Shown here: positions 1,809 through 19,904 of the stretch, in pieces
Numbering within the stretch: the stretch's first letter is position 1
Layout: each line of letters starts with the position of its first letter
Source of the DNA: a virus
Lineage: Duplodnaviria; Heunggongvirae; Uroviricota; Caudoviricetes
DNA: 28,416 nucleotides
Virus record (IMG/VR): IMGVR_UViG_3300045988_053559
Location: 1 to 28,416 of that record
Reading direction: 5' to 3' (one strand)
The notes under the pieces: model-generated
Told to the model about the DNA's origin: nothing
Seen by the model: only the letters and a program-made list of their open reading frames with translations
Database searches by the model: none
Made by a program: the position numbers and the translations under genes

Positions 1809-1886
1809 AATACCGCGCATTGTTTCACTGCCCCCATCACCGCAACCATAAGGCTCCAGTAAGTTTTTTCTAACGGAGCACGGCTC

Positions 1887-2720: not shown

Positions 2721-2736
2721 TGGAGCACAAAACCTG

Positions 2737-3795: not shown

Positions 3796-3798
3796 TTC

Positions 3799-4449
3799 AT
3801 GAGCCTGAGTCCCGCACGGCAGCATCGCCTGCGCGTTCAGGCTGAACAGGCCGCTCGCGAGGGTGGCAGTGTTCGCCACGCGTCGGGCTATGACCTGATG
3901 CTGCTGCAACTGGCGGAAGACCGCCGCCGTCTCAAGGGCGTTCAGTCCACGGTCAAAAAAGCGGAAATCAAGGTGGAACTGCTGCCGAAATACGCCGCCT
4001 GGGCAGAGGGTGTCCTGGCTGGCGGAGGCGCGCAACAGGATGACGTGCTGATGTACGTGATGCTGTGGCGCATTGATGCCGGAGATTATGCCGGGGCGCT
4101 GGAGATCGGGCGTCACGCCCTGCGTCATGGCTGGGTGATGCCGTTGGGTAACCGCAACGTGCAGACCGTGCTGGCAGAGGAAATGGCAGACGCAGCGCAG
4201 AGCGCAATGCTTGCCGCCACCGGCTTTGATGCTGATCTGTTGCTGCAGACGCTGGAGCTGACAGACGGTCTGGATATGCCGGACCAGTCACGGGCACGTC
4301 TGCATAAAGCGATTGGCGCTGTCCTGAGTGAAAGCAATCCGGCTTCCGCCCTTAATCATCTCAACCATGCGTTACAGCTCGATCCCCGCTGTGGCGTGAA
4401 AAAAGACAAACAGCAGCTGGAGCGCAGACTGCGCAATGACAGCCGCTGA
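3799..4449 (+). CDS. M: Terminase small/endonuclease subunit, P2 gpM-like
   Basis: ORF of 216 aa; GGAG ribosome-binding site; P2 gene order O-N-M-L. Confidence 0.8.
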   Translation: MSLSPARQHRLRVQAEQAAREGGSVRHASGYDLMLLQLAEDRRRLKGVQSTVKKAEIKVELLPKYAAWAEGVLAGGGAQQDDVLMYVMLWRIDAGDYAGALEIGRHALRHGWVMPLGNRNVQTVLAEEMADAAQSAMLAATGFDADLLLQTLELTDGLDMPDQSRARLHKAIGAVLSESNPASALNHLNHALQLDPRCGVKKDKQQLERRLRNDSR

Positions 4450-4544
4450 CAGAACGTGCCCCCGCGCACGGGCGGCACGGGGTGGCGAAAGGCACTGCCA
4501 CATCAAAATCCCGTCCACCGCCCTTTATTTCAGGAGAAAGCAGC

Positions 4545-5009
4545 ATGAAGTTTGTTGCGCCAGAACAGGCACCGGAACAGGCGGAAATCATCAGAAATAC
4601 GCCGTTCTGGCCTGATGTGGACCTGTCGGAGTTTCGCTGTGTCATGCGCACTGACGGCACGGTGACGCAGCCGCGTTTAAAGCAGGTTGCGCTGTCGGCA
4701 ATTTCGGAGGTCAACGCAGAGCTGTATGAGTTTCGCAGACGTCAGCAGATGCTGGGATATGCCTCGCTGGCAGAGGTTCCGGCGGAACAGCTGGACGGCA
4801 AAAGTGAGCGCATTCATCACTATTTCAACGCGGTTTACTGCTGGGCACGCGCCATGCTCAACGAGCGTTATCAGGACTATGACGCCACGGCATCCGGTGT
4901 GAAGCGGGGCGAGGAACTGGCGGAAGCAAGCGGTGATTTGTGGCGTGACGCCCGCTGGGCCATCAGCCGGGTGCAGGATGCGCCGCACTGCACAGTGGAG
5001 CTTATCTGA
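4545..5009 (+). CDS. L: Head completion/stabilisation protein, P2 gpL-like
   Basis: Track ORF 4482..5009; start placed at ATG 4545 (MKFVAPEQ...) because it is preceded by AGGAGA. Confidence 0.75.
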   Translation: MKFVAPEQAPEQAEIIRNTPFWPDVDLSEFRCVMRTDGTVTQPRLKQVALSAISEVNAELYEFRRRQQMLGYASLAEVPAEQLDGKSERIHHYFNAVYCWARAMLNERYQDYDATASGVKRGEELAEASGDLWRDARWAISRVQDAPHCTVELI

Positions 5010-5212
5010 TGAAAGTGCGTGCGCATCAGTATGACACGGTGGACGCGCTTTGCTGGCGTCATTACGGGCGCACGCAGGGTGTCACGGAGCAGGTACTGAA
5101 GGCAAATCCGGGGCTTGCCGAATACGGCCCCTTTTTACCTCACGGGCTGCAGGTGGAGCTGCCGGACATTCCGACCACCACCACCGTGCAGACCGTCCAG
5201 CTATGGGACTGA
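5009..5212 (+). CDS. X: Tail protein X, P2 gpX-like
   Basis: 67 aa, the same length as P2 gpX; start overlaps the L stop (TGATG). Confidence 0.8.
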   Translation: MKVRAHQYDTVDALCWRHYGRTQGVTEQVLKANPGLAEYGPFLPHGLQVELPDIPTTTTVQTVQLWD

Positions 5213-5215
5213 ATT

Positions 5216-5431
5216 ATGACGCTTGAGCGAATCAGCGCCTTTATCACGTACTGCATCGCCGTTGTGCTGGCCTGGCTGGGCGATTTGTCCATCAAGGATG
5301 CCTCAACGCTGGGCGGCCTGATGATTGGTGTACTGATGCTGGCTATCAACTGGTACTACAAACACAAAGCCTACCAGCTTCTGCGCGACGGGCAGATCTC
5401 GCGGGAGGATTATGAATCCATCAATCGTTAA
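5216..5431 (+). CDS. Class II holin, probable pinholin
   Basis: 71 aa with two hydrophobic helices (ISAFITYCIAVVLAWLG and LGGLMIGVLMLAINWYY) and a charged C-terminus; immediately upstream of and overlapping a SAR endolysin. Confidence 0.65.
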   Translation: MTLERISAFITYCIAVVLAWLGDLSIKDASTLGGLMIGVLMLAINWYYKHKAYQLLRDGQISREDYESINR

Positions 5432-5927
5432 ACGCTGCCTTGTCGGGGCCGTGCTGGCTATTGCTGCCACGCTGCCGGGTTTTCAGCAGCTTCACACCTC
5501 CGTGGAGGGACTGAAACTGATTGCCGATTACGAAGGCTGTCGTCTGCAGCCGTATCAGTGCAGCGCGGGTGTCTGGACTGACGGCATTGGTAATACGTCG
5601 GGCGTCATTCCCGGCAAAACCATTACGGAACGACAGGCAGCAGAAGGGCTTATCTCCAACGTGCTGCGTGTGGAGCGGTCACTGGAAAGGTGTGTGAAGC
5701 AACAGCCACCGCAGAAAGTGTATGACGCGGTGGTGTCATTTGCCTTCAACGTGGGGACAGGCAATGCCTGCAGCTCCACGCTGGTGAAATTGCTCAATCA
5801 GCGGCGCTGGGCGGATGCGTGCCGACAGTTGCCGCGCTGGGTGTATGTAAAAGGTGTGTTTAATCAGGGGCTGGATAACCGCCGAGCGCGGGAGATGGCC
5901 TGGTGCCTTAAAGGAGCTGGACTATGA
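5412..5927 (+). CDS. SAR endolysin, phage 21 R-like lysozyme (GH24)
   Basis: 171 aa; N-terminal signal-anchor-release helix CLVGAVLAIAATLPGF; EG...GVWT..G.G.T and SFAFNVGTGN motifs as in R21; GGGAGGA ribosome-binding site. Confidence 0.85.
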   Translation: MNPSIVKRCLVGAVLAIAATLPGFQQLHTSVEGLKLIADYEGCRLQPYQCSAGVWTDGIGNTSGVIPGKTITERQAAEGLISNVLRVERSLERCVKQQPPQKVYDAVVSFAFNVGTGNACSSTLVKLLNQRRWADACRQLPRWVYVKGVFNQGLDNRRAREMAWCLKGAGL

Positions 5928-6352
5928 CACGTGCGCTGGCGGTAGTGGCGGCGCTGGCACTCGTTGCGCTGGGCTGGCAGTCGTGGCGGCTTAACAGCGC
6001 CAGCCATACCATCGAAACGCAGCGCGCGGCGCTGAAAAGTAAAGCGCAGGAACTGACGAAGAAAAACAGCCAGCTGATCAGTCTGTCCATTCTGGCTGAA
6101 ACCAACAACCGGGAGCAGGCGCGGCTCTACGCCGAAGCAGAACAGACCAGTGCACTGCTGAGACAACGACAACATCGGATTGAGGAACTGAAACGTGAGA
6201 ACGAGGATTTACGCCGCTGGGCTGATACTCCTTTGCCTGCTGACATTATCCGGCTGCGGGAACGTCCGGCACTCACCGGAGGTGCAGCTTACCGTCAGTG
6301 GGTGTCCGCGAGTGACGCCGTGTCGGCTGGATCAGGCAGCGCCGCGCACTAA
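5924..6352 (+). CDS. lysB: i-spanin, LysB/Rz-like
   Basis: 142 aa; N-terminal transmembrane helix (ALAVVAALALVALGW) then a charged coiled-coil-like region; ATGA overlap with the endolysin stop. Confidence 0.7.
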   Translation: MTRALAVVAALALVALGWQSWRLNSASHTIETQRAALKSKAQELTKKNSQLISLSILAETNNREQARLYAEAEQTSALLRQRQHRIEELKRENEDLRRWADTPLPADIIRLRERPALTGGAAYRQWVSASDAVSAGSGSAAH

Positions 6353-6485
6353 CGGTGATCTGAACGCATTGCTGGATGAAACGGAGGTCGCCTGGGCGGT
6401 CTGTGCAGACAAAGTGGACATGATTATTGCGTGTCAGGAGCGAAACAGTGAACAAACCACAATCCCTGCGCCACGCCCTCAATAA
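6195..6485 (+). CDS. lysC: o-spanin lipoprotein, LysC/Rz1-like, starting inside lysB in another frame
   Basis: GTG start; signal peptide with lipobox LTLSGC; overlaps the 3' part of lysB and extends past it. Confidence 0.65.
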   Translation: MRTRIYAAGLILLCLLTLSGCGNVRHSPEVQLTVSGCPRVTPCRLDQAAPRTNGDLNALLDETEVAWAVCADKVDMIIACQERNSEQTTIPAPRPQ

Positions 6486-6879
6486 AGCAGTGCCTTATGT
6501 CCGCAATAACCCGGACAAACTGCATCTGTTTGTGGATAACGGTTCGCTGGTTGCCACGGGGGCCAGCTCCATGTCATGGGAGTACCGCTATACCCTGAAC
6601 GTGGTGATTGAGGATTTCAGCGGCGACCAGAATCTGCTGATGGCCCCGGTTTTGCTGTGGCTGCGGGATAATCAGCCTGATGCCATCAATAACCCGGCGT
6701 TACGGGAAAAGTTATTCACCTTTGAGCTGGATATTCTGCGCAATGATGTCTGTGATATCAGCCTTAACCTGCAACTGACGGAGCGTGTGCTGGTCAGCAC
6801 TGATGGCAGTGTGTCGAGTGTTGAAACTGTAGCGGAACCCGATGAACCTGAAGAAATGTGGACGGTGAAACGTGGCTGA
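6448..6879 (+). CDS. R: Tail completion protein, P2 gpR-like
   Basis: Track ORF 6427..6879 begins at a TTG; GTG at 6448 has an AGGAG ribosome-binding site; sequence PQSLRHALNKAVPYVRNNPDKLHLFVDNGS... Confidence 0.8.
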   Translation: MNKPQSLRHALNKAVPYVRNNPDKLHLFVDNGSLVATGASSMSWEYRYTLNVVIEDFSGDQNLLMAPVLLWLRDNQPDAINNPALREKLFTFELDILRNDVCDISLNLQLTERVLVSTDGSVSSVETVAEPDEPEEMWTVKRG

Positions 6880-7318
6880 ATTGCAGAAGGTGGACGACTG
6901 GTTGAGTGCCTTGCTGGCGAATCTGGAGCCAGCCGCAAGAAGCCGTATGATGCGCCAGTTGGCGCAGGAACTGCGCCGGACACAGCAGCAGAACATCAGG
7001 ATGCAGCGCAATCCAGATGGCAGCAGTTATGAGCCGCGCAGAGTAACAGCACGCAGCAAAAAGGGGCGCATCAAACGTCAGATGTTTACAAAGCTGCGCA
7101 CCACAAAATACCTGAAAACTGCCGCCAGCGCCGACTCTGCCAGCGTGCAGTTTGAAGGTAAGGTGCAGCGCATTGCCCGTGTTCACCATTACGGCTTGCG
7201 CGATCGCGTCAGTCGCAAAGGACCTGAGGTCCGTTACGCAGAGCGTCGCCTTCTGGGTGTAAATGATGATGTTGAGGCAATGACCCGCGACATGATTCTG
7301 CAATGGCTGGCGGGGTGA
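6872..7318 (+). CDS. S: Tail completion protein, P2 gpS-like
   Basis: 148 aa; GTG start overlapping the R stop; P2 order R-S. Confidence 0.8.
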   Translation: MAELQKVDDWLSALLANLEPAARSRMMRQLAQELRRTQQQNIRMQRNPDGSSYEPRRVTARSKKGRIKRQMFTKLRTTKYLKTAASADSASVQFEGKVQRIARVHHYGLRDRVSRKGPEVRYAERRLLGVNDDVEAMTRDMILQWLAG

Positions 7319-7322
7319 TCTT

Positions 7323-7340
7323 TGTATCAGCACTGATACA
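7323..7340. promoter_or_regulatory. TGT-N12-ACA dyad between S and V; candidate late-activator site of a P2 P_V-type promoter
   Basis: tgtatcagcactgataca, with extended 9-bp arms ttgtatcag / ctgatacaa; sits in the 68-bp S-V gap where P2 has its V promoter. Confidence 0.45.
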
Positions 7341-7386
7341 AGTTGCAGCACTGCCGCCTTTCTTCCCCTGATGGCAACCTTTCCCT

Positions 7387-7965
7387 ATGAACGCACAATT
7401 AACCGAAATCATGCGCCTTATCACCAACCTGATCCGCACAGGTGTAGTCACCGAAGTGGACAGGGCAAACTGGCTGTGTCGGGTGAAAACTGGCGACCTC
7501 GAAACCAACTGGATTAACTGGCTGACACTGCGCGCGGGCAAATCGCGCACCTGGTGGAAACCGTCTGTGGGTGAGCAGGTTGTGCTGTTCAGCCTTGGCG
7601 GCAATCTGGAAACCGCGTTTGCCCTGCCTGCGGTCTACTCAAACCAGTTTCCGCCACCTTCAGGCTCTGAGGACGGCAACGTGACGGAATACCCGGACGG
7701 CGGCTGGTTTGAATACGAACCCGCCACCGGGCGCTGGTATGTTAGGGGCATCAAATCAATGGTCATTGAGGCCGCTGACAATATCACCCTGAAAACCAGT
7801 GAGTTTGTGCTGGAGGCTGACCGCACGCGTATTAACAGCGAAGTGGTGATCAATGGTGGCGTTACCCAGGGCGGCGGAGCGATGAGCTCTAACGGGATTG
7901 TGGTTGATGCGCATCAGCATACTGGCGTCCTGAAAGGCGGCGATACAACCGGAGGCCCGGTATGA
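7387..7965 (+). CDS. V: Baseplate assembly/spike protein, P2 gpV-like
   Basis: 192 aa, MNAQLTEIMRLITNLIRTGVVTEVD... Confidence 0.85.
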   Translation: MNAQLTEIMRLITNLIRTGVVTEVDRANWLCRVKTGDLETNWINWLTLRAGKSRTWWKPSVGEQVVLFSLGGNLETAFALPAVYSNQFPPPSGSEDGNVTEYPDGGWFEYEPATGRWYVRGIKSMVIEAADNITLKTSEFVLEADRTRINSEVVINGGVTQGGGAMSSNGIVVDAHQHTGVLKGGDTTGGPV

Positions 7966-8321
7966 CGCTTTATAGCGGGATGAACAATACCAGCGGCAAA
8001 GTCATTACTGATATTGATCATCTGCGCCAGTCGGTGCGGGACATTCTGCTGACACCGCAGGGTAGCCGCATTGCCCGCCGGGAATATGGATCCCTCCTGT
8101 CGGTTTTAATAGATCAGCCACAAAATCCGGCATTACGCCTGCAGGTCATGTCGGCAGTGTATGTGGCGCTGAGTCGCTGGGAGCCACGGCTGACGCTGGA
8201 TTCCATTACCATCAACAGCAACTTTGACGGTTCTATGGTGGTGGAGCTGACCGGGCGGCGGAATAACGGTGTGCCTGTGTCCCTTTCCGTATCAACAGGA
8301 GCAGAGAATGGCAGTGATTGA
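7962..8321 (+). CDS. W: Baseplate protein, P2 gpW-like (gp25/GPW family)
   Basis: 119 aa; start overlaps the V stop. Confidence 0.85.
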   Translation: MTLYSGMNNTSGKVITDIDHLRQSVRDILLTPQGSRIARREYGSLLSVLIDQPQNPALRLQVMSAVYVALSRWEPRLTLDSITINSNFDGSMVVELTGRRNNGVPVSLSVSTGAENGSD

Positions 8322-9216
8322 CCTTTCGCAGTTGCCTGCACCGCAGATTGTGGATGTGCCGGACTTTGAGACGCTGCTTGCCGAACGCAAGGCAGAATTT
8401 GTGGCGCTTCATCCGAAAGATGAGCAGGAAGTCGTGATCCGCACGCTGGAACTGGAATCTGAACCCGTCACTAAATTGTTGCAGGAGAACGCTTACCGTG
8501 AGTTGCTTCTGCGCCAGCGCATTAACGAAGCCGCGCAGGCGGTGATGGTGGCTTACGCGATGGGCGGCGATCTTGACCAGCTCGCTGCCAACTACAACGT
8601 GACACGCCTGACGGTGACGCCTGCTGATAATGATGCTGTGCCGCCCGTTGCAGCTGTGATGGAAAGCGATGAAGCGTTACGCCTGCGTGTGCCTGCAGCC
8701 TTTGAAGGGCTTTCTGTTGCGGGGCCAACTGCAGCTTATGAATTTCATGCCCGAAGCGCCGACGGTCGGGTGGCGGATGCCAGTGCAACCAGCCCGGCAC
8801 CTGCAGAGGTGGTGCTGACTGTCCTTAGCCGCGAAGGCGATGGAACTGCAGAAAAAGACCTGCTGGACGTGGTGGAAAAAGCTCTGAACAGTGAGAACGT
8901 CCGCCCGGTGGCTGACCGTCTTACGGTTCGCAGCGCAGAAATCATCCCGTATCGCGTGGAAGCCACCATTTTTCTCTATCCGGGACCGGAAGCAGAGCCG
9001 GTAATGGCAGCGGCAAAAGCCAGTCTGCAGAAGTACATTGCCAGCCAGACGAGGCTTGGTCGGGATATTCGCCGTAGCGCCATCTTTGCTGCTCTGCATG
9101 TTGAGGGTGTTCAACGTGTGGAACTGGCTTCTCCGCTGGCGGATGTGGTCCTGAACAAAACACAGGCGGCATCATGTACGCAGTGGAGCGTAACCAACGG
9201 AGGAACGGATGAATAG
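8308..9216 (+). CDS. J: Baseplate protein, P2 gpJ-like
   Basis: Track ORF 8269..9216; start placed at ATG 8308 (MAVIDLSQLPAPQIV) after AGGAG. Confidence 0.85.
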   Translation: MAVIDLSQLPAPQIVDVPDFETLLAERKAEFVALHPKDEQEVVIRTLELESEPVTKLLQENAYRELLLRQRINEAAQAVMVAYAMGGDLDQLAANYNVTRLTVTPADNDAVPPVAAVMESDEALRLRVPAAFEGLSVAGPTAAYEFHARSADGRVADASATSPAPAEVVLTVLSREGDGTAEKDLLDVVEKALNSENVRPVADRLTVRSAEIIPYRVEATIFLYPGPEAEPVMAAAKASLQKYIASQTRLGRDIRRSAIFAALHVEGVQRVELASPLADVVLNKTQAASCTQWSVTNGGTDE

Positions 9217-9814
9217 TCTGCTGCCACCGGGTTCAACTTCACTGGAGCGCCGACTGGCGCAAACCTGTAGCGGGATTTCTGATCTGCAGGTGCCGCTGCG
9301 TGACTTGTGGAATCCGGCTACCTGTCCGGTCAGCTTCCTGCCTTATCTCGCCTGGGCGTTCTCTGTGGATCGCTGGGACGAGGGCTGGACAGAAAGCGTC
9401 AAACGCCAGGTAGTGAAGGATGCTTTTTATATTCATCAGCATAAAGGAACTACCAGTGCCGTGCGGCGGGTGGTGGAACCGTTCGGATTCCTGATCCGCA
9501 TTATTGAGTGGTGGCAGACCGGAGAAACACCGGGCACGTTTCGCCTGGATATCGGCGTGCAGGACCAGGGCATCACTGAAGATACCTATCTGGAACTTGA
9601 GCGGCTGATAAGCGATGCCAAACCATGTAGCCGTCACATGATCGGCATGTCCATCAATCTGCAGACCAGCGGTCCGCATTGGGTGGGGGCCGCCAGCTAT
9701 CTTGGCGAAGAAATCACGATCTATCCGTATATCAACGAAACAATTATTTCTGGCGGCACCGCGCATGAAGGCGGGGCGGTCCATGTTATTGACACAATGA
9801 GAGTGAATCCATGA
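9209..9814 (+). CDS. I: Baseplate protein, P2 gpI-like
   Basis: 201 aa; overlaps the J stop and the H start. Confidence 0.85.
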   Translation: MNSLLPPGSTSLERRLAQTCSGISDLQVPLRDLWNPATCPVSFLPYLAWAFSVDRWDEGWTESVKRQVVKDAFYIHQHKGTTSAVRRVVEPFGFLIRIIEWWQTGETPGTFRLDIGVQDQGITEDTYLELERLISDAKPCSRHMIGMSINLQTSGPHWVGAASYLGEEITIYPYINETIISGGTAHEGGAVHVIDTMRVNP

Positions 9815-11217
9815 GCACAAAATTTTATACCCTGCTGACGGATATTGGCGCGGCGAAACTTGCCAGCGCCGCCGCGCTCGGTGTGCCGCTAAAAATTACC
9901 CATATGGCGGTCGGCGATGGCGGCGGAGTATTGCCAACGCCAGACTCAAAGCAGACTGCACTGGTAAATGAGAAACGCCGGGCTGCGCTGAATATGCTCT
10001 ATATCGACCCGCAGAACAGCAGTCAGATTATTGCCGAACAGGTGATCCCTGAAAACGAGGGCGGTTGGTGGATACGTGAAGTGGGCTTGTTTGATGAGTC
10101 CGGGGCATTGATTGCCGTGGGCAACTGCCCGGAAAGCTATAAGCCGCAACTGGCTGAAGGTAGCGGGCGCACTCAGACCGTGCGCATGGTGCTGATTACC
10201 AGCAGCACGGACAATATCACCCTGAAAATCGACCCTGCTGTAGTGCTGGCAACCCGCAAGTATGTGGATGACAAGGCACTGGAGCTGAAGGTGTACGCGG
10301 ATGATCAGATGGCAAAACATCTTGCCGCACCGGACCCGCATTCACAGTATGCACCCAAAGAAAGTCCGACGTTTACCGGGACACCCAAAGCGCCAACGCC
10401 AGCAGCAGGGAATAACACCACGCAGATTGCGACCACCGAGTTTGTTCAGGCGGCTCTGACGGCTCTTATTAATGGTGCGCCAGCCACGCTGGACACGCTG
10501 AAAGAAATAGCCGCAGCCATTAACAATGATCCGAAATTCAGTACCACCATTAACAATGCGCTGGCACTAAAAGCGCCGTTGTCGAGTCCGGCACTCACCG
10601 GAACGCCAACCGCACCTACTGCGGCACAGTCGGTCAACAATACACAAATTGCCACCACGGCATTTGTGAAATCGGCGATTGCGGCAATGGTGGGTTCTGC
10701 ACCTGCGGCACTGGATACACTGAACGAACTGGCGGCGGCGCTGGGGAATGACCCGAACTTTGCCACGACAATGCTTAATGCACTGGCAGGTAAACAACCG
10801 CTGGACAATACGCTGACTAATTTGAGTGGAAAGGATGTAACTGGTCTTCTCACATACCTTGGTTTGGGAGAAGCGGCAAAGAGGAATGTGGGGACAGGAG
10901 AAAATCAGGTACCGGATATGAACAGCTTTGGTAACTCATTGACCGCCAATGGATACCAGAAATTACCTGGGGGGATGATTATTCAATGGGGGAGTTTTTC
11001 TGTCTCACCAACCGGAGGAAGTGTTGGAACAGTTGATATAACATTACCTGTAGCTTTCCCTGCTGCTTGTCGTTCGGTAAACGCTCTTATTTCAACTAAT
11101 GATCCTTCTGCCCGTTCTGTGGGCTTTGATATTGGAAGTACCAACAGAACTAAAATCAGATTTACTTACACTTCTGCTACAACAAATTCAATTTACTGGA
11201 TGGCTGTGGGGTATTAA
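9811..11217 (+). CDS. H: Tail fibre protein: P2 gpH-like constant N-terminal part (to about 10855) fused in frame to a variable receptor-binding C-terminal domain
   Basis: 468 aa; P2 H-like motifs MAVGDGGG, ESYKPQLAEGSGRTQ, NNTQIATT(E/A)FV, LNELAAALGNDPNFATTMLNALAGKQP. After LGLGE the sequence turns AT-rich and unrelated (..QKLPGGMIIQWG..). Confidence 0.85.
   Translation: MSTKFYTLLTDIGAAKLASAAALGVPLKITHMAVGDGGGVLPTPDSKQTALVNEKRRAALNMLYIDPQNSSQIIAEQVIPENEGGWWIREVGLFDESGALIAVGNCPESYKPQLAEGSGRTQTVRMVLITSSTDNITLKIDPAVVLATRKYVDDKALELKVYADDQMAKHLAAPDPHSQYAPKESPTFTGTPKAPTPAAGNNTTQIATTEFVQAALTALINGAPATLDTLKEIAAAINNDPKFSTTINNALALKAPLSSPALTGTPTAPTAAQSVNNTQIATTAFVKSAIAAMVGSAPAALDTLNELAAALGNDPNFATTMLNALAGKQPLDNTLTNLSGKDVTGLLTYLGLGEAAKRNVGTGENQVPDMNSFGNSLTANGYQKLPGGMIIQWGSFSVSPTGGSVGTVDITLPVAFPAACRSVNALISTNDPSARSVGFDIGSTNRTKIRFTYTSATTNSIYWMAVGY
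10847..10872. repeat. Left crossover-like site TTCTCACATACC-TT-GGTTTGGGAGAA (hix/gix-like imperfect palindrome); contains the 18-bp perfect repeat 10856..10873
   Basis: Reverse complement of 10856..10873 recurs exactly at 12704..12721; core resembles the AAACC-NN-GGTTT of Hin/Gin/Cin sites; lies at the constant/variable junction of H. Confidence 0.55.
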
Positions 11218-11219
11218 CT

Positions 11220-11651
11220 ATGGAAAAGACATATTATTTTAATCCCTCTGATTCGGGATTTTATATTTCACCAGATAGCCAAACCATTCCTGAGAACGCT
11301 ACGAAAATAAACTTTACTATTTATTCTGAGTTCGCAGGAGTTGCATGGCCTGATGGTAAAATACTTGGTTCAGATAAAAATGGTTTTCCAGCATGGCAGG
11401 ATGCGCCACCACTTACCAGCGAAGAATTAATCTCAATCGCTGAATCAAATAAACAGCGATTAGTTAATCAGGCCAACGAATACATGAACAGCAAACAATG
11501 GCCTGGTAAAGCGGCGATTGGTCGTCTGAAAGGTGAGGAACTGGCGCAATATAATTTGTGGCTGGATTACCTGGACGCACTGGAAATGGTCGATACTTCC
11601 AGTGCGCCAGATATTGAATGGCCTACGCCTCCGGCAGTACAGGCCAGATGA
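11220..11651 (+). CDS. G: Tail fibre assembly chaperone, P2 gpG/Tfa-like
   Basis: 143 aa; AT-rich N-terminal part; conserved Tfa C-terminus ...SSAPDIEWPTPPAVQAR. Confidence 0.8.
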   Translation: MEKTYYFNPSDSGFYISPDSQTIPENATKINFTIYSEFAGVAWPDGKILGSDKNGFPAWQDAPPLTSEELISIAESNKQRLVNQANEYMNSKQWPGKAAIGRLKGEELAQYNLWLDYLDALEMVDTSSAPDIEWPTPPAVQAR

Positions 11652-12225
11652 CATCCGGCGCGGTGCTGATATCTGTTGCCGTCACCGCGTCAATGTAATC
11701 CAGCACCGTGTTAAGTCGGCTGGTTTCTGCCTGCGTCAGATTCCGTCCGGCCTGTAATTTTAGTTGAATCAGATTGATGGAAGCCATTGCAGTATCAATC
11801 AGCGACTGGCGTTGTGCTTCTGCTGCATCGACTGCGGCGCTATGTTGTGCCTCGGTATCCGTCACCCATTTCTCACCATCCCATTTATCGTATGGTGTTA
11901 ACGGGACGATAGTGGTTGTATTATCAGGGTAATCACCCGGAGCTGTGATTTCTTTTGATTCTCCTGTTTCGGTGCTAAAGACGATTTCACCGCGATGGTC
12001 TGGCACATATTCCCATGAGTTAAAATCTGCAGAACGGCAGATTGCATAACCAGCTTTGTATGCGCCTGGAGCATCTAAACAGGAATATGCCGGAATGCCG
12101 ACACCAACAGCAAGATATTCAGTTGAAGCTGAAATATACTCCCGACTCACGACATCAAAGTTATAAACAGTAATTTCTCCTGCCATAGTGGCAATTAATT
12201 CACTGTTTAATTCTGCGTTATTCAT
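11623..12225 (-). CDS. Tail fibre assembly chaperone (Mu U-like), convergent with the + strand chaperone
   Basis: 200 aa; C-terminus ...STAPDVIWPVLPEA; start overlaps the upstream fibre stop (TAATG). Confidence 0.8.
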   Translation of the reverse strand: MNNAELNSELIATMAGEITVYNFDVVSREYISASTEYLAVGVGIPAYSCLDAPGAYKAGYAICRSADFNSWEYVPDHRGEIVFSTETGESKEITAPGDYPDNTTTIVPLTPYDKWDGEKWVTDTEAQHSAAVDAAEAQRQSLIDTAMASINLIQLKLQAGRNLTQAETSRLNTVLDYIDAVTATDISTAPDVIWPVLPEA

Positions 12226-13007
12226 TATGCAGCCCTCACAATATAGTTAAAAGCGACATTTCGTGGGCGTGTTTCATTCGCACCTGCAGGTTTAGTCGTT
12301 GCCGCAACAACACCACCCTCTGTAATAGCCGGGTTGGGAATTGGGTAATTATCGAAGTCAATGGCTGGAGACAGGGGCGTGATTTGTTTTAAAATCGTGG
12401 TGCCTGTAAAACTTCCCAGAGTCTGGTCGTTAGTTCGTGAAGTCCAGATTCCCCAATAGTGGTTATGACTGACAATCGCACCGTCCTGAAGCGTTAATAA
12501 TCCCCTTCCGTTATCCACTCCACGTCCGTCATCCCAGCCACGAATAAACTCACCGCGTAAATCAGGTAATTTATTTGTCGGATAAGCCTTTGCCAGTTCC
12601 GGGTATTCTTCAGCAGAAAAAGCTGCTCCGTTGCATTTCAGCCAGCCTGTTGGCGGAGTGGCTGAAGGCCACGGAACAGGCACACCAACAGGTAATGCTG
12701 AGCCTTCTCCCAAACCAAGGTTTTCGAGAGCTGTTTTCACCGTGCCATCCGATTTGATATCGCCAAACGGATTCTTGCGGCTTAACAGCAGCGCACGAAG
12801 CGCGGTAAGCAGCTGGTCATGCCGCCCCTTCTCCAGGCTGGCACCGGATGCCTCCACAACGCTGCAAAGCTCCTCCTGCAACATGTCAAAGTAGTCATCA
12901 TCCAGATCGGTGGCAGGCGTGCCGGTCTGGGGGTTACCACGGGTAAAACCGTTCTTACCCGCGCCGAACTTATCCTTCTGCGCGGTTTTCGTGTCTATAC
13001 GATGCAT
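12225..13007 (-). CDS. Tail fibre protein (Mu S-like) with tail-collar-type C-terminal domain
   Basis: 260 aa; N-terminus [21 protein letters not shown]...; LGLGE junction motif; ..[20 protein letters not shown].. collar-like motif. Confidence 0.8.
12705..12730. repeat. Right crossover-like site TTCTCCCAAACC-AA-GGTTTTCGAGAG, inverted partner of the left site; contains the 18-bp perfect repeat 12704..12721
   Basis: Reverse complement of 10856..10873; lies at the constant/variable junction of the minus-strand fibre gene. Confidence 0.55.
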
Positions 13008-13010
13008 GGA

Positions 13011-13595
13011 TTACTCCGGATATTTAAAAATCACATAGGTATGCGACGGGCAGAGTTTGTTAAGAACACACTCGACAACGGTGTCCCCCCAGAAGCGCAG
13101 CGCGGAATCACAGGGATCGCCACATGTCATCCAGGTGGTGTTGGTGGCGGCTGGCATGTTGACCTGCCAGTAATACCGCCATTCCGGCGCATTCACCGCG
13201 TCAGTACAGGCAGATGAGCAGGTGAACGTGCTTTTGTCGTATCGCGTGATGGTGGCGTCTGGTCTGCCCAGGGCAGCAAGCTGTGCAAGGTAAAAATCCT
13301 CATTGATGCCGCCCGCCAGGTTAACCTTCGCATCCAGCCGTTGCTGACGCTGGCGAAGGGTCTGCGTCCCTGCCGGAATACATTCATCCGGCAGGCCGCA
13401 CAGACGCTCCCAGCGGTTTATCAGTTCGGTGGTGGTGCGCGGATCCAGCTCCTGCATCAGGGCATCCGCACGCTGATGAACACGGGTTAATGACGGTGCT
13501 GCACCGGCAATCGCCGGATCGCTGGCTGACCACGCCGGACCGGGCGGCAACAGTGCTGACAACAGACGGATGTAATCATCGTTTGTCACGTCCAT
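13011..13595 (-). CDS. Tail/baseplate protein, Mu gp48 (R)-like, YmfQ family
   Basis: 194 aa; sits between the baseplate J-like gene and the tail fibre, as in Mu and e14. Confidence 0.65.
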
Positions 13596-14644
13596 GAAAT
13601 CGCCCCCAGAACCGCCAGTTCATTTTTCGCAATGGTGATATTGTCCGCCGGTGCAAGCAACTGATGGCTGTATTCCCCGTTCGCACCGGAAATCGCTTCA
13701 CTGATACGTGACACCTTCAGTTCTCCCTGCGGATAACCATCACGCAGCAGGAACGAACGCAACTCCGCGGTGATGGCAGCCCGTATTTCCGGTGTGTCCG
13801 GCGTCACACGGATATGAAAATCCACCGTATGTGCCACCGGCCTGAACACATACAAATCAGAGCCTGCCACCGGGGCCAGTGGCCCGATATGTTGTCTTGC
13901 CGCCGTTTCCGTTGATTCTTCCGGAATGGGATTAATCAGGTCACTGCTGGCAATCATCACACCGACAGTCCCCGTTCCCATCCAGTGTCGGTATGTCCAT
14001 GCGCGGGTAATGCCAGGCACTTCTTTAGCCCAGACGACATAGTCCCCGTCAGCCCCGCCCTGCGGCGTCCAGTAATACCGCTCAATGACGCGGGCGCGCC
14101 ACGTTTCCAGCTCTTCAGTATCAAATCCGCCTGTCAGGGTGTCAGCCACACCGGAAGACGGCAGACCATTCACCGGCGTGACCAGGATTAATGCCGTACC
14201 GTCGTCAGCGTTACCGACCGCACCTGCACTTGAGCAGGCGATCGGCACGCGCAGGACACCACCGGAGCTGATTGCATCGTCAGTTGTCGTGTACTGCACC
14301 AGGTCATCGCGCTGAATAACACTCCCGGCAGTCACCTTCAGGCCATCGCTGACACCTTCCCAGCGCATATACCCGCTGGCAACCGTGGCCCCCTTGCGCG
14401 GACACCGTTTCATCGCAGCATGTCGCGCCAGCCAGGACTCATCGCACAGGTCAGGCAGCATATTCATTGCCAGATAATCGATGTAACCGTAGACCATATG
14501 CAGCGCCGCCGCATACACCTTTGCCCGCACGTCTTCATCCATGCGCCGGAGCGTGTCGCTGACGTCCAGCCTGGCGAATAAATCGTTACGGAGCATACTG
14601 ATATTTTCTGCCAGCGTCGGGCGCTGAAATTCACTGTCCGCCAT
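13586..14644 (-). CDS. Baseplate J-like protein, Mu gp47 (W)-like
   Basis: 352 aa; position and size. Confidence 0.75.
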
Positions 14645-15059
14645 GCGTTATCGCACTCCACAGATCATCAAAAGAAATCATTACTGGTCCATCACGACGC
14701 CAGAGGGTGATACTGTTACCCAGCTCATTAATCCCGGTGCGGCGGATATCCAGATCAATACGGGACACCACGCCGTCATCAGTCATCCATTGCAGGCATT
14801 CGCGGATATATCCCCTTACCGTCTGCACCAGCTGATTGGTCAGTTTGCTGCGCTGAAGCAACCACAGTCGGGAGCCGTAACGGTCATTCTGTACCGCAGG
14901 CCAGGTATCCCCCCACCATCCCATCGGGACGTCGGCATTGTCATCAGGCTCCGCCCGCCGCCAGGTGAACAGGGAAATCACCACGGCGCGGGTCAGCGGA
15001 TCCAGCGGTGCGCTGGCGCAGGTGCGTTTACCGTTCACCGTCAGCCACAGTTCCATCAT
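14631..15059 (-). CDS. Baseplate protein, Mu gp46 (V)-like (gp25/GPW-like)
   Basis: 142 aa; overlapping neighbours in the baseplate operon. Confidence 0.7.
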   Translation of the reverse strand: MMELWLTVNGKRTCASAPLDPLTRAVVISLFTWRRAEPDDNADVPMGWWGDTWPAVQNDRYGSRLWLLQRSKLTNQLVQTVRGYIRECLQWMTDDGVVSRIDLDIRRTGINELGNSITLWRRDGPVMISFDDLWSAITHGGQ

Positions 15060-15604
15060 GCCTCCATCGCTTTATCAGGTTTGTCGGTGTTACTGCCCTG
15101 ACCGTTCTCTCTGTGACGATGCCCGTTATAGGCAAGCCGCATCGCTGACATGGTGGTGCCGCCGGAGTCGCACAGGTCTTTCACCTGTCCTGTCACTTCC
15201 AGGTCCATTTCAAAACGTGCCTTAGGCGCATTGCGAAACGTGATCGTTTTACCTGCACCGTCCACCACGATCCCCTCCCGGGTCAGCGTCACGGACTGCC
15301 CCTGATCGTCATAGACAGCCACCTCCCCAGTCTGCAGCCCTTTCAGGCGGTAGCGACGGTCCGACACCGTAACAACCACCGCATGAGAACGGTCGCCATC
15401 CGGAAACAACACCACCGCTTCCGCACCGCTGTTTGCCCTTGCGGTAAAACCGTAGGGTTCAAGATGTTCAACCCCGGCTTTGGGTTCACCGGCAATCAGG
15501 GACACATCCACGGTCTGACATTTCGTGGCGGCACTGATGCTTTTCACCACGGCCCGCCCAATCAGGCCGAGGAGTTGTCGCTGCATGGCTTCAATCGTCC
15601 TCAT
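15056..15604 (-). CDS. Baseplate assembly/spike protein, Mu gp45 (Q)-like
   Basis: 182 aa; ATGA overlap with the upstream gene. Confidence 0.7.
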   Translation of the reverse strand: MRTIEAMQRQLLGLIGRAVVKSISAATKCQTVDVSLIAGEPKAGVEHLEPYGFTARANSGAEAVVLFPDGDRSHAVVVTVSDRRYRLKGLQTGEVAVYDDQGQSVTLTREGIVVDGAGKTITFRNAPKARFEMDLEVTGQVKDLCDSGGTTMSAMRLAYNGHRHRENGQGSNTDKPDKAMEA

Positions 15605-16683
15605 CAGAACGGGTCCTCCTGTACTCTGGCTTTTTTCTTTTTCCGCGCGCCGGGGGCTTCGGGTTCAGGCAGATAAGCATCAGGCGGGCCGACACGGATT
15701 TCCGTCAGGGTGCCGTTCTGGTCCTGAGTAAACGTGACTTCCGAAACAAGCAGTTCGGTATTGTCGAAACCACAGACCGGATCAAAGACAATCACCCGTT
15801 GGTTGGGCTGCCACAGCGTACCGTTACCCTGTCGCCAGCCCTGCACCACATAGGTGGTTTCATCCGTCCGCGCCGCCCGTTGTCGGGCTTCAAAGTCCGC
15901 ACGGGCAATACAGCCTGCCCCCGTAGCCTGCCCTGTCTGCCTGATATACATCGGACGGTAACGGGCAATAAATGCGTCCTCTGTGCGGGCCCGCAGCGCG
16001 GTGGTGGTGGCCTCACCGAAATCATCGTCGTTTCCGGCACGCTGCCCCGCCACCTGGTAAACTGAAAACCGCTCCCGGATACTCTTCTCCGTATCACAGG
16101 AAAGGATGTTTTCCCCAAGTACCAGCGCGGTATGTGCCCGCGTTGAGCCAATACCACCAATCACCAGCCTGCCGTGCGGGTCGTCATAAGCCAGCGCCTG
16201 CTGCTGACCGAGTATTTTGTTGATCACCTCGATCACCGTTTCACCGTGATCAGGCTGGACATCCGGAATAACACCCGACGGCGCATCGCTGTTCACCACC
16301 TCAATGCCGAAAGGCGCAGCAAGCGCCTGCGCAATCTGTACCAGCGATCGTCCGTTAAACTGTGTCGGTTCGGCTGCACAGTCAATCAGGTCAGCAGTCA
16401 GACTACGTCCGGCAATACCGGTGATGACCGAACGGGCATCGTAACGAACGGGGGTCGCCTCCACCCAGCCGGTGATCACCAGCTCATCACCAATCAGCAC
16501 TTCCACTTTTGAACCGTTTTTAATGCGCGGCTGAAGCGTGGTGATACCCTCATCTCCCGGCCATTGGCGAGTGATCTCCACACTGAAATCCCGCGCCAGC
16601 CGTTCAATACCGGCACCGATGCGCACCGATGTCCAGCCATTCCACTCCCGGCCATTTACCCGTAGCGTGACATTGTCGTTCAT
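15604..16683 (-). CDS. Baseplate hub / late control D-like tail protein, Mu gp44 (P)-like
   Basis: 359 aa; lysine-rich C-terminus (RKKKKARVQEDPF). Confidence 0.7.
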   Translation of the reverse strand: MNDNVTLRVNGREWNGWTSVRIGAGIERLARDFSVEITRQWPGDEGITTLQPRIKNGSKVEVLIGDELVITGWVEATPVRYDARSVITGIAGRSLTADLIDCAAEPTQFNGRSLVQIAQALAAPFGIEVVNSDAPSGVIPDVQPDHGETVIEVINKILGQQQALAYDDPHGRLVIGGIGSTRAHTALVLGENILSCDTEKSIRERFSVYQVAGQRAGNDDDFGEATTTALRARTEDAFIARYRPMYIRQTGQATGAGCIARADFEARQRAARTDETTYVVQGWRQGNGTLWQPNQRVIVFDPVCGFDNTELLVSEVTFTQDQNGTLTEIRVGPPDAYLPEPEAPGARKKKKARVQEDPF

Positions 16684-18008
16684 TGCACTGGCACCTTCAG
16701 AGGGATCACCGGCACAAAGCCGGGATGCGTAATGGCATTACGCCGGATAATGTCCGCGTCACGCGCCGCGTTATCAAACCAGGTCGCCGCCAGCACCAGC
16801 GCGGGTAAAACCTCATCCGGCGTGCGCTGAATGATCCGTGCAGACTGTTCAAGGCGCGTGTTGATATCCGCATTCAGATCTGCTTTCACCCGGCGCAGCG
16901 CCAGAAACAGCGCATCACTGGTTGTACGGGACAACTCCTTATCAATTGCCGTATTCAGTGTGTCGCGAATGTCGGTCAGTTCTTCCCACGTTGGCAGGTC
17001 AACCGTGTTTTTCACCGCCGGTGCATTGTTCAGTGCCGGATGCGTGACAGAAGGCCAGCCGGTGCTCTGCGCGGGTGTTGTTGACTGCCCTACTGTGGCA
17101 TTCTGCATCACCGCGGAAGTTGTGGACGCAGGCAATCGTGTGACGGCATACGCCGCTTCGCTGATTGCGGTCGTACGAAGGGTGCTGGCAACCACGTTAC
17201 GCTGCTGCGTCGCCGTGGCGGTAGTTTTACTGTCCGTTTTCCAGACGCCGCGCGGTTGCAGATCGCTGCCGAGGCTGACACCGGAAAGCGTTTTGATCAT
17301 GGTGACCAGGTCGCTGGCGTTACCATAAAGGCGTTTCCCGGTACGCCACATTTTCTGCACCTGCTCAACGAAATTTTTGCCTGACGATGGTGGCGGCAGA
17401 AGTACCGAGATATCCCCCTGCAACAGCCTGGCGGCATCCGATACGGCAGAATCCACCACTTTCATCGCATCAGAAACATACCCAAGCATTGTGCTGGCAT
17501 TACCGACGACGTCGTTCTGCACAAAATCTGCCACGCCATCGATACTGAAACCACTGAAGCTGTCACTGATGCAGTCATCCAGTGCAGAACAGGATGACAT
17601 CAGCGTCTGCGCCGTCGCCGCACCTGAAGTGGGGTAAGAGAGTTCTCCCGCTTCGACAAACTTCAGGTCAAAGCGGACAATACGCCCTTCACTCTTCGAT
17701 GTGCTGACCCGAACTTCCCCGTCAACACAAACTTTCAGCTCACCGTAAGTCGGATGGACAAGCGTGCCGGGACCGGGTTTATTCAGCGCGTCAATCAGGC
17801 GATCGCGCTGGTCAAAGCAGTCATCTCCCACCACATAAGCTGTGATGGACGGGCGGAAAGTGATTTTCCCCAGGTCTTCGGTATAGGGTTTGTCGCGGTT
17901 CGGGTATTCGTGCGTTTCCACACGACGACCGGTTCCCGCACTTTCTTCTTCAACCTTAAACGGCACACCGCGAAATGACGCGTCCTGAAGTCTGTCTTTC
18001 CACGTCAT
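16680..18008 (-). CDS. DNA circulation protein, Mu gp43 (N)-like
   Basis: Track ORF 16680..18050; ATG 18008 (MTWKDRLQD) has a GGAG ribosome-binding site; 18050 and 18023 are alternative starts. Confidence 0.7.
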   Translation of the reverse strand: MTWKDRLQDASFRGVPFKVEEESAGTGRRVETHEYPNRDKPYTEDLGKITFRPSITAYVVGDDCFDQRDRLIDALNKPGPGTLVHPTYGELKVCVDGEVRVSTSKSEGRIVRFDLKFVEAGELSYPTSGAATAQTLMSSCSALDDCISDSFSGFSIDGVADFVQNDVVGNASTMLGYVSDAMKVVDSAVSDAARLLQGDISVLLPPPSSGKNFVEQVQKMWRTGKRLYGNASDLVTMIKTLSGVSLGSDLQPRGVWKTDSKTTATATQQRNVVASTLRTTAISEAAYAVTRLPASTTSAVMQNATVGQSTTPAQSTGWPSVTHPALNNAPAVKNTVDLPTWEELTDIRDTLNTAIDKELSRTTSDALFLALRRVKADLNADINTRLEQSARIIQRTPDEVLPALVLAATWFDNAARDADIIRRNAITHPGFVPVIPLKVPVQ

Positions 18009-18022
18009 ATAAACTCCGTACA

Positions 18023-18047
18023 TAAAAAATCCCACCGGAGTGGGACT
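18023..18047 (-). terminator. Terminator-like hairpin plus U-tract between tape measure and DNA circulation genes (possible attenuator)
   Basis: Minus-strand RNA AGUCCCAC-UCCG-GUGGGAUU followed by UUUUAU. Would lie inside the coding region if translation began at 18050. Confidence 0.3.
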
Positions 18048-18068
18048 CATTAACAGATTAATTTTTCA

Positions 18069-19904
18069 TTACCTGCCAAAGCGCGTATAGCCAACATCAT
18101 GGCTGACATCAAAACCGCTGGATCGCGTTTCCATAACCCGCATACCCGGAGGCGAATTCACAAAAGAGACCTTGATCTCACCATCAACTTTTGGCGCAGA
18201 AGCTTTGTTAATCATGAAGGGATTCGGGCCTGTGGCACCGGAGGCGTTGTTTGACTGAGCCGGATCTACCGCCTGATAAGGTGTGTATCCCCGTGCCGGT
18301 ATTCCCGTCCCATAAGCATCATAAGCACCCGCGCCCCACTGCGCAGAGTTAATGGCATCAACCGTGTCACCGGAACTGTCGGTAAACCACTCAATAATTG
18401 GCTTCAGTTTGTCCCACATATCCTGAAACCACTTAACAACCGGTCCCCAGTTATTGATTACTATCCCCAGCGGCGACCAGGCAAAAACCTTCTTCAGAAG
18501 TTCCCAGCCAGCCTCAAAATAAGGACCAATGGTTTCCCAGAGCTTCTTGAAATAAGGTCCGACAACATCCCAGTTAGTGATAATTAATCCCGCAGCCAGG
18601 GCTATCGCCGTCGCAATCATTCCAATCGGCGTCATCGACATGATCCTGCTGACAATACTGATGGCACCGCCAACGCCCATCAATCCCAGTTTCAGAATCG
18701 CAAGACCGGCAGCAAGCCCGACGACGCCGCGAATAACCCGGGGATTTTCATCCGCAAACTTCGTGAATTTTTCCCCTAACTCCCCCAGCCATTGCGTGAT
18801 ATTTTTGGCGTCACCAGAAAATGCGCCGCCAATAGCCGCAAGGCCGTTAGTTGCGGTCCCCGTCATTGCCTCCCACAGGTTGGACAGCGTACCAAGCTGG
18901 GCCTGAACACGTTTATTCAGGCTGGCCTGTTTATTCATCTTCTGCTGGATCTGATCGTAGCCATCCTTTCCTTTATCAATTAGTGCATTGACCACCTGAA
19001 GGGTTTCGGCATCATCACCAAATATTGCCTTAAGTACACCTGTTCGCTTAACGTCGGTCAGTTTTCGCAGCTTTGCCAGTTGCCTGAACATGTTATCAAG
19101 ACCGCCAAAACTTCCTTTGCCGTCAGTAAAATCGAGCTGTACCCCGAGTTTCTGGCGGGCCATGATTTTATTGACGTCCCTGATTTTCTTAACGCTTAAT
19201 CCGGACTGGATAACTTTTCGCAGGGCGTTACCTGCCGACTCCCCGTTCATCCCCATCTGATCCATCATGACGCTGATGGGGGCAAGGCTCTGTGCAGCCT
19301 GAAGACCGTCCTTGTTCACCATCTTCAGAACAGAGCTGGTTTTAGTGAAGAAGGACAACATGTTGGTATCGTCAACACCCAGATAAAACGCCTTCTGGAT
19401 AGTGTCGAACAGCCCCATCATGTCTTCTGACGCCGTTCCGGTAGCATCCTGCATCTTTGCAGCAAACTCAGCAGCCGCTTCCGGTGTTTTTTTCAGTTGT
19501 ACCGCAAGATAAGCTGTCGCTTTACCCACACCGCCAAGAATGTTTTCTGCCGGGATCCCCTGACGCACCAGCATCTGCATCATGTTCTGGAAATCAGCCG
19601 TTGTACCGGGTAGCTGGTTACCCAGGCCAATAGCCAGTTTATTGATGTCCTGAAAGCTCTTTCCGACCTCGCCGTTCGCATCCATCATGGCGACTTTCAG
19701 CCCGGTGGCGGCGTTTTCCTGATCGGCATAAGATTTCAGGGAAAGCGTCAGACCCGCTGCCAGTCCGCCACCAAGCGCCAGCCCACCCTGTGACGCTTCT
19801 TCCGCCTGGCGTTTAAATCCCCGGATTTTCTTTTGCATTTTCGACAGCGCGGGAGAAAGCCTGTCGACACCGGTGATCAACGCCTTAAGCTCAAATTCCG
19901 CCAT
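18069..19904 (-). CDS. Tail tape measure protein
   Basis: 611 aa; glycine/alanine-rich hydrophobic central segment; follows the frameshifted chaperone pair. Confidence 0.85.
   Translation of the reverse strand: MAEFELKALITGVDRLSPALSKMQKKIRGFKRQAEEASQGGLALGGGLAAGLTLSLKSYADQENAATGLKVAMMDANGEVGKSFQDINKLAIGLGNQLPGTTADFQNMMQMLVRQGIPAENILGGVGKATAYLAVQLKKTPEAAAEFAAKMQDATGTASEDMMGLFDTIQKAFYLGVDDTNMLSFFTKTSSVLKMVNKDGLQAAQSLAPISVMMDQMGMNGESAGNALRKVIQSGLSVKKIRDVNKIMARQKLGVQLDFTDGKGSFGGLDNMFRQLAKLRKLTDVKRTGVLKAIFGDDAETLQVVNALIDKGKDGYDQIQQKMNKQASLNKRVQAQLGTLSNLWEAMTGTATNGLAAIGGAFSGDAKNITQWLGELGEKFTKFADENPRVIRGVVGLAAGLAILKLGLMGVGGAISIVSRIMSMTPIGMIATAIALAAGLIITNWDVVGPYFKKLWETIGPYFEAGWELLKKVFAWSPLGIVINNWGPVVKWFQDMWDKLKPIIEWFTDSSGDTVDAINSAQWGAGAYDAYGTGIPARGYTPYQAVDPAQSNNASGATGPNPFMINKASAPKVDGEIKVSFVNSPPGMRVMETRSSGFDVSHDVGYTRFGR

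Follow-up and report, generated by a model that had tools for sequence, protein, structure and literature searches.

Results

A tail-fibre cassette between two convergent fibre genes

We analysed a 28,416-nucleotide (nt) stretch of viral DNA (Caudoviricetes; IMG/VR record IMGVR_UViG_3300045988_053559, positions 1 to 28,416), called the window below. It contains a potentially invertible tail-fibre cassette of 1.86 kb, measured from core to core of its two crossover sites (10859-12718). Two convergent fibre genes run into this cassette, one from a P2-like prophage and one from a prophage resembling SfII, SfV and e14, and the two lineages join somewhere inside it. We argue that this joint is probably the product of an inversion between two prophages.

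In fibre gene H, on the plus strand (9811-11217), a P2-type constant part runs to 10858 and continues in frame into a gp53-like tip (V3). Pfam places Phage_tail_fib at its N-terminal amino acids (aa) 1-150 and Gp53-like_C at aa 384-468. H is followed on the same strand by T3 (11220-11651), a chaperone of 143 aa for the gp53-like tip. On the minus strand, fibre gene S (StfE/SfII_23-like, 12225-13007) joins a constant part of 96 aa to a Collar-domain tip (V4; Collar at aa 108-155), and its length and context match those of the fibres at three reference loci (L001, L013 and L014). Its chaperone, T4' (tfaE-like, 200 aa, 11623-12225, minus strand), serves the Collar tip and lies tail-to-tail with T3, which it overlaps by 29 nt at its 3' end. 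Both chaperones carry the Caudo_TAP domain (E = 4.7e-30 for T3 and 2.6e-31 for T4'). Neither the exact hybrid H protein nor the exact T4' protein had a record in an exact-protein look-up covering 153 billion gene positions, and the H constant part was contiguous with this gp53-like tip in none of 5426 complete Escherichia coli genomes.

The layout is that of a host-range cassette, with the constant parts outside, in-frame alternative tips inside and a chaperone after each tip. The usual single expressed constant region with a promoter-less tip at the invertase side was not seen; both sides here are complete constant regions, and these belong to operons of different prophages. When a flip of 10859-12718 was simulated, both open reading frames stayed open (513 and 215 aa). 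In a P2-like prophage of E. coli 1002W03 (L009), the same cassette faces the H constant part the other way round, and in the finished E. coli genome FDAARGOS_1287 the Collar module is on the P2 side.

The two crossover sites

An 18-mer, ACCTTGGTTTGGGAGAAG, is present once per strand, at 10856-10873 (plus) and 12704-12721 (minus). No further match was found in the window with up to two mismatches allowed, and the chance expectation was 0, as no match arose across 100 dinucleotide-preserving shuffles. A repeat search extended the pair to 26 nt with 88% complementarity (10848-10873 and 12704-12729). Each copy sits in a 26-bp site of the type defined for hix (PMC3798978), with imperfectly symmetric 12-bp halves around a 2-bp core, and the two sites are inverted relative to each other. 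The left site (10847-10872) has the outer half TTCTCACATACC, of P2 H type, the core TT (10859-10860) and the inner half GGTTTGGGAGAA; on the lower strand, from the inside outward, it reads TTCTCCCAAACC AA GGTATGTGAGAA. The right site (12705-12730) has the inner half TTCTCCCAAACC, the core AA (12717-12718) and the outer half GGTTTTCGAGAG, of SfII/e14 fibre type. The half-sites in the window are TTCTCCCAAACC, TTCTCACATACC and CTCTCGAAAACC. Written from inner to outer half, the core is AA in both sites (TT and AA on the plus strand), so the core dinucleotides match, as ligation of the exchanged ends requires. Both sites are carried by LGLGE codons in a common phase (CTT GGT TTG GGA GAA), at aa 350 of the 468-aa plus-strand fibre and at aa 97 of the 260-aa minus-strand fibre.

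Across the loci compared, the core was AA in every site, and the inner half was TTCTCCCAAACC save for one site in FDAARGOS_1287 (TGCTCTTAAACC) and one-base variants (L004 and L006). The outer half is set by its context: it is GGTATGTGAGAA beside the P2 H constant part, GGTTTTCGAGAG beside the SfII/e14 fibre constant part, and CGTTTA[TA]GAAAA on the invertase side in both phage families (with the variant CGTTTATTAAAA in L009). The outer half of the left site is identical to that of the H-side site in three intact P2-like prophages (L003, L004 and L009), and the right site is identical to the fibre-side site of an e14-like prophage (L001) and to the single site of phage SfII. The window retains both fibre-side outer halves, and neither invertase-side half (CGTTTA[TA]GAAAA) is present in it.

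The shared core of the window sites equals the repeat sequence quoted for the e14 P segment in PMC12529663, with TTGGTTTGGGAGAAG lying within those repeats. The e14 repeats have been inverted experimentally by PinE, PinQ and PinR, including invertases of other prophages (PMC12529663). Judged by their identity to these validated e14 sites, the window sites are genuine Hin/Gin/Cin/Pin-family crossover sites. Phage SfII (NC_021857.1, L012) carries the exact 18-mer and the full 26-bp site (locus 1764-1781, near position 17263 of the record) at the constant/variable junction of its fibre gene, and its homology to the window stops exactly at the outer edge of the right site. It has one fibre gene and one chaperone, with no second site, cassette or invertase. 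Because this invertase-less, single-site phage carries the identical 26-bp site in the same codons, the motif is both a crossover site and a conserved piece of coding sequence.

These results bear on an initial annotation of the window made from its letters. Its description of a perfect inverted 18-mer, of hix/gix/cix-like 26-bp imperfect palindromes with a 2-bp core, of their position in the LGLGE codons at the constant/variable junctions of convergent fibre genes, and of an equal codon phase that keeps both fibres in frame after a flip was borne out throughout. The two fibre tips and two tail-to-tail chaperones that it placed between the sites, in the layout of the Mu G, P1 C and e14 P segments, agree with the Pfam domains. 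It had also raised the possibility that the 18-mer recurs at the junctions of non-inverting fibres and is only a coding motif. The recurrence is real, as SfII shows, but the motif is not only a coding one, being a validated crossover sequence too.

Two prophage lineages flank the cassette

The left flank (49-9814) is the late region of a P2-like (Peduoviridae) prophage. The 5' part of the terminase P gene lies at the window edge on the minus strand, and is followed on the plus strand by O, N, M, L, X, holin, lysozyme, LysB/C, R, S, V, W, J and I, with Pfam Tail_P2_I and Baseplate_J domains. Positions 49-10873 are 99.3% identical, without gaps, to an intact P2-like prophage that neighbours ssrA in E. 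coli 1002W03 (L009), an identity that allows the annotation of L009 to be carried over to the window. The P2-like prophage is incomplete here: homology ends inside the cassette, after the chaperone, and SfII-like genes follow on the other strand. The invertase, sheath, tube, tape measure, D and ogr are all absent, where intact prophages have FI, FII, E, T, U, D and ogr. The H constant part (9811-10873) is also 99.6% identical to Klebsiella pneumoniae prophage records (Kp4845-2 and others), up to the exact end of the crossover site, while the remainder of those Klebsiella P2-like phages is only about 96-97% identical to the window. The fibre constant region is common to different genera, with the crossover site as its boundary.

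The right flank (13011-28374, minus strand) contains the structural genes of an SfII/SfV/e14-like prophage, a type with an HK97-type head and a Mu-type baseplate, and they are colinear from terminase to fibre: YmfQ/Mu gp48-like, gp47/J, gp46, V, baseplate P-like, DNA circulation, tape measure, tube, sheath, head genes, portal and part of the terminase (Pfam Phage_Mu_Gp48 and Baseplate_J). Positions 12733-28382 are 98.0% identical to Shigella phage SfII over 100% coverage, and 97.9% and 97-98% identical to SfI and SfV; these tail and head genes come with an identical fibre N-terminus and 26-bp site. Among prophages, window 11640-19170 is 99.4% identical to the SfII-like prophage of E. coli JCKP02 (L014), and window 10847-18700 is 98.8% identical to the pinE-linked e14-like prophage L001. 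The distal end of the SfII-like element (invertase or acyltransferase, and attachment site) is absent from the window, and this element too stops inside the cassette. Most of the mismatches to the JCKP02 prophage (35 of 47) cluster at 15191-16453, in the baseplate V-like (15056-15604) and P-like (15604-16683) genes, and mark another mosaic patch.

The initial annotation had called the two constant regions unrelated, one P2 H-type and the other Mu S-type. The first assignment stands, given the Phage_tail_fib domain; the minus-strand fibre is better described as SfII/SfV/e14 StfE-like, on a Mu-like baseplate.

Intact relatives own a cassette and an invertase

Both phage families normally own a cassette with an adjacent invertase. 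Intact P2-like prophages have the order I, H, chaperone, chaperone (minus strand), tip (minus), serine recombinase, sheath and tube, continuing to D and ogr. Intact e14-like prophages have pinE (minus), tip, chaperone, chaperone (minus), fibre (minus), ymfQ, gp47 and so on. The recombinases of both families have Resolvase and HTH_7 domains and are 85% identical to each other, and P2-like and SfII/e14-like prophages have cassette modules in common at 96-100% identity. L009 holds all four modules of the window in the flipped orientation (97.96% identical), and the e14-like L001 holds the same cassette oriented as in the window. The initial annotation had treated the cassette as one system shared by two fibres. 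The comparison does not support this: the cassette does not look like one evolved for two fibres, as it sits on a recombinant joint and each intact relative owns its own cassette and invertase.

No serine invertase was found in the 28.4-kb window, either by tblastn with PinE and the P2-like invertase or by blastn with their genes, as the initial annotation had also reported. The invertase gene is the usual carrier of the Fis enhancer, so the same searches found no such carrier in cis, with a cryptic enhancer elsewhere being possible. The family normally requires a Fis-bound enhancer inside the 5' part of the invertase gene, as set out in references of PMC3798978, although over-expressed Hin inverts without one (PMC2427008). 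Local flipping of 10859-12718 would need an invertase acting in trans, which is established for e14 sites (PMC12529663). Because the enzyme would have to act in trans and without a nearby enhancer, we expect the cassette here to switch slowly or not at all.

Relatives of both prophage families adjoin ssrA (loci L005, L007 and L010, in FDAARGOS_1287 and 1002W03). Since the P2-like relative of 1002W03 lies beside ssrA, tandem lysogeny of the two families at one attachment (att) site is plausible.

In E. coli bR_120_Kylling (NZ_CP182374.1, L006, locus 5776-8903), two different P2-like tail modules diverge from one cassette that is flanked by two serine recombinase genes, as in the reciprocal type of joint from a P2 by P2 inversion. 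A palindromic query for the corresponding convergent P2 by P2 joint gave no match at 80% coverage or more, although megablast would probably have missed the second P2-like prophage of bR_120_Kylling because of its divergence.

Lineage markers inside the cassette form a patchwork

The markers within the cassette change allegiance more than once. Positions 10859-11669 follow L009 with one mismatch. Between 11707 and 12154, in T4', there are 36-37 differences, at the same positions, from both L009 and L001 and 0 from L014, and over the slightly longer interval 11690-12170 the only sequences with 100% identity are those of two SfII-like prophages without a cassette (D217-5 and JCKP02), which have a single fibre and chaperone and no invertase. 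This patch of about 450 nt looks like a gene-conversion tract. Four markers at 12270-12343 then follow L009 and L001 and not L014, position 12690 is private to the window, and from 12719 onwards the sequence is SfII-like backbone. By these markers the joint lies somewhere within 10859-12718; its position is not pinned further because the cassette markers form a patchwork. They do not tell an invertase-mediated exchange from homologous recombination.

Two simpler placements were considered and rejected. One bracketed the lineage switch to 22 nt at the left core (10859-10880), and so made the exchange invertase-mediated. This bracket rested on P2-like references that lack the gp53-like module (L003 and L004) and on a test of contiguity with the H constant part, and it was abandoned because L009 carries the gp53-like module, flipped. 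The other was a clean single crossover at 11670-11706 in T4', which is contradicted by the four markers at 12270-12343 that follow L009 and L001, not L014.

The 3' ends of the convergent chaperone genes form an 18-nt inverted repeat (89%; 11561-11578 and 11687-11704), whose right arm lies within the 37-nt interval (11670-11706) where similarity passes from L009-like to L014-like. This repeat could be a recombination hot spot or the stem of a bidirectional terminator.

The joint is rare, and the one finished genome with a like joint also has the reciprocal one

We searched 5426 complete E. coli genomes with a 14-kb query across the joint, requiring at least 80% coverage. A convergent P2-like/e14-like joint was present in one of them, FDAARGOS_1287 (NZ_CP070071.1). 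A 69-mer across the left joint of the window had no exact match in GTDB species genomes or IMG/VR.

If the joint arose by inversion, its other end should read pinE (minus strand), cassette, P2 invertase (plus strand), sheath and tube. The best match to a synthetic query for this order, built from L001 and L004, was again FDAARGOS_1287 (98% coverage). Its reciprocal locus reads ssrA, three small genes, pinE, tip, chaperone, chaperone, tip, recombinase, sheath, tube and onwards to D and ogr. The two joints are 45-49 kb apart, with sites at 83201/85028 and 130308/132233, and between them lie the whole rest of the e14-like prophage, from tail sheath to integrase, and a 3-kb spacer. Reversing this 45-49 kb inversion yields two complete tandem prophages beside ssrA. 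The inversion size and the two invertases given here are those of FDAARGOS_1287.

FDAARGOS_1287 resembles the window in having a convergent P2-like/e14-like joint through a single cassette, and has two invertases at the reciprocal joint. It differs in its Collar tip on the P2 side, its different second tip and its interrupted stfP. By its annotation, stfP is a truncated pseudogene, which means that this genome has no intact SfII-like fibre at the joint, and the fibre-side site (L002, locus 9675-9700) has the degenerate inner half TGCTCTTAAACC. As its flanks are only about 97% identical to the window, the event in FDAARGOS_1287 was probably independent of that in the window. It is an unpublished example, present in RefSeq.

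With the prophages in tandem, as restored for FDAARGOS_1287, a pair of near-identical cassettes would share one orientation at a distance of 45-49 kb.

Discussion

Relation to known invertible segments

By site structure, sequence and gene layout, the window cassette is a member of the family that includes e14 P, Mu G, P1 C and the P2-like cassettes; it departs from that family in enzyme and enhancer. The closest counterpart is the P segment with PinE of E. coli K-12 e14 (stfP-tfaP-tfaE-stfE-pinE) and of full-length e14/SfV-like prophages, which is alike in its repeat, layout and size (about 1.8 kb). However, where e14 has pinE and the half-site CGTTTATGAAAA, the window has a P2-type H constant part and the half-site GGTATGTGAGAA, and no invertase or enhancer adjoins its cassette. 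P2-like prophages of E. coli (ATCC 8739 and 1002W03) share the H constant part (99.3-99.9%) and the left site with the window, but theirs continue from the cassette to a serine recombinase and FI, FII, E, T, U, D and ogr, whereas the window continues to an inverted SfII-like fibre gene and baseplate. Phase variation of the P2-like cassette, in enteropathogenic E. coli (EPEC), and of the e14 cassette has been documented in E. coli (PMC4272514). Phages SfII, SfI and SfV match the right flank, but SfII differs in its single fibre tip and chaperone.

The 26-bp sites with a 2-bp core are like those of Mu G/Gin, P1 C/Cin, p15B Min and Salmonella Hin, a group of systems that exchanges a fibre tip together with its chaperone by means of a serine invertase with a Fis enhancer within its own gene (PMC3798978 and references therein). 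A segment of this group has a single constant region and a single invertase at its sides (with several sites within one element in p15B Min), whereas the window has two constant regions from two elements and no invertase. Inter-prophage exchange has been reported for ST131 isolates, at a repeat of 70 bp in their homologous GpH/Mup49-S fibre genes (bioRxiv 10.1101/2022.05.07.487787). We found no published inversion joining P2-like and SfII/e14-like prophages through their cassettes and, on invertase-mediated inter-prophage inversion, only a brief observation in a preprint. The feature is real: it adds an example to two kinds already known, invertible fibre cassettes and recombination between prophages, and its setting is a rare one.

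A probable inversion between two prophages

How does one cassette come to face two unrelated fibre genes, with no invertase beside it? The explanation that we favour, and consider likely, is that the window is one end of an inter-prophage inversion that joined a P2-like prophage (plus strand) to an SfII/SfV/e14-like one (minus strand) within the cassette. In their normal state, both prophages would have had such a cassette of their own, or a homologous fibre-tip and chaperone module. If they lay in the same orientation on one chromosome, an exchange between the cassettes would invert all of the DNA between them. The end seen here would be the one that reads P2 H constant part, cassette, SfII-like fibre constant part; the other end would hold the invertase gene or genes with their internal Fis enhancers, an orphan cassette or tip module, and the P2 genes from sheath to ogr. 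Two unrelated fibre genes would then face the cassette because P2-like and SfII/e14-like prophages recombined there, and no invertase would lie nearby because the rearrangement separated the two, a separation that is seen directly in FDAARGOS_1287.

Three routes could have led to this exchange. An invertase may have joined the H-side site of the P2-like prophage to the pinE-side site of the other prophage, or the invertase-side site of the P2-like prophage to the fibre-side site of the SfII-like one. Alternatively, RecA-type homologous recombination or gene conversion could have taken place between 1.86-kb cassettes, about 98% identical, in inverted orientation. With a cassette-less SfII-like parent, only the second and third routes would be available, and the right-hand repeat would be the own junction motif of that fibre gene. 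Whichever route was taken, both fibres would remain in frame with a cognate chaperone, and both prophages would be split and unable to excise as units, since after an inversion the attachment sites are no longer in the orientation needed.

Several points weigh against this explanation. The reciprocal joint that it predicts has been seen directly in FDAARGOS_1287 and not in the source genome of the window, where we infer it. The switch between lineages cannot be placed at a crossover site. The T4' allele otherwise occurs only in SfII-like prophages that have neither cassette nor invertase, so the SfII-like parent may have had a single site. The absence of the hybrid H and T4' proteins from the exact-protein look-up fits a recent event, and it fits an assembly chimera equally. 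We likewise infer, and do not observe, the mechanism of the exchange and whether the cassette still flips.

Other explanations

An assembly artefact would require that both prophages are normal in the source, and that near-identical flipping cassettes were collapsed or mis-threaded so that the P2 H flank became joined to the SfII-like fibre flank. Cassette modules that are 96-100% identical make a repeat longer than short-read inserts, with four possible flanks, and the unrecorded proteins and the unmatched junction 69-mer fit such a chimera. We nevertheless think an artefact improbable: a finished genome, FDAARGOS_1287, has such a joint together with its exact reciprocal partner, the window runs unbroken for 28 kb across the repeat, and both fibre reading frames are clean and in frame. 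A deletion would leave local sequence exactly as an inversion does. Here, two convergent prophages would have recombined through directly repeated cassette modules. The P2 invertase and the genes from sheath to ogr would have been lost, together with the DNA in between and the distal end of the SfII-like prophage, leaving a relic permanently without an invertase. The T4' allele suits this account, since with a parent of the cassette-less SfII-like kind pinE need never have been present. But the relatives of both phage types at ssrA share one orientation, which favours inversion, the only comparable genome shows an inversion, and with distant att sites a deletion would take essential genes with it; we give this alternative somewhat less credence still.

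The least probable explanation, and in our judgement a very unlikely one, is that the locus is an evolved functional switch, in which two unrelated fibres share one cassette, the invertase is encoded elsewhere and both phages change host range together. In its favour, each fibre stays in frame and has a cognate chaperone whichever way the cassette lies, e14 sites can be inverted by Pin-family enzymes supplied in trans (PMC12529663), and over-expressed Hin can work without the enhancer (PMC2427008). However, only one of the 5426 genomes has an arrangement of this kind, and its modules differ and one of its fibres is broken (the stfP pseudogene). The joint truncates both prophages, all intact relatives carry an invertase of their own next to the cassette, and no enhancer was found in cis.

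Implications

An inter-prophage inversion accounts for a cassette with two owners and no invertase without invoking a new system. A more speculative extension, which we think unlikely, is that the joint is a trapped intermediate of a reversible shufflon between co-resident, unrelated prophages. A first inversion at non-partner sites would produce split prophages that cannot excise, and a second, at the remaining pair of sites, would make both prophages complete again, each now with the entire host-range cassette of the other. If this were true, P2-like and SfII/e14-like phages would trade receptor-binding modules through such a shufflon, which would also turn the excision competence of the prophages off and on.

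Joints of this kind also carry a warning for annotation, as prophage predictors and inversion finders will mis-call them and assemblers can create them artificially. For the phages themselves, fibre cassettes that are 96-100% identical across unrelated prophage families act as portable recombination hot spots, which can invert tens of kilobases or more, split two prophages together and create new combinations of fibre and tip. Horizontal exchange of fibre modules among P2-like, Mu-like and lambdoid phages has long been noted, and such cassettes offer a route for it that can be tested.

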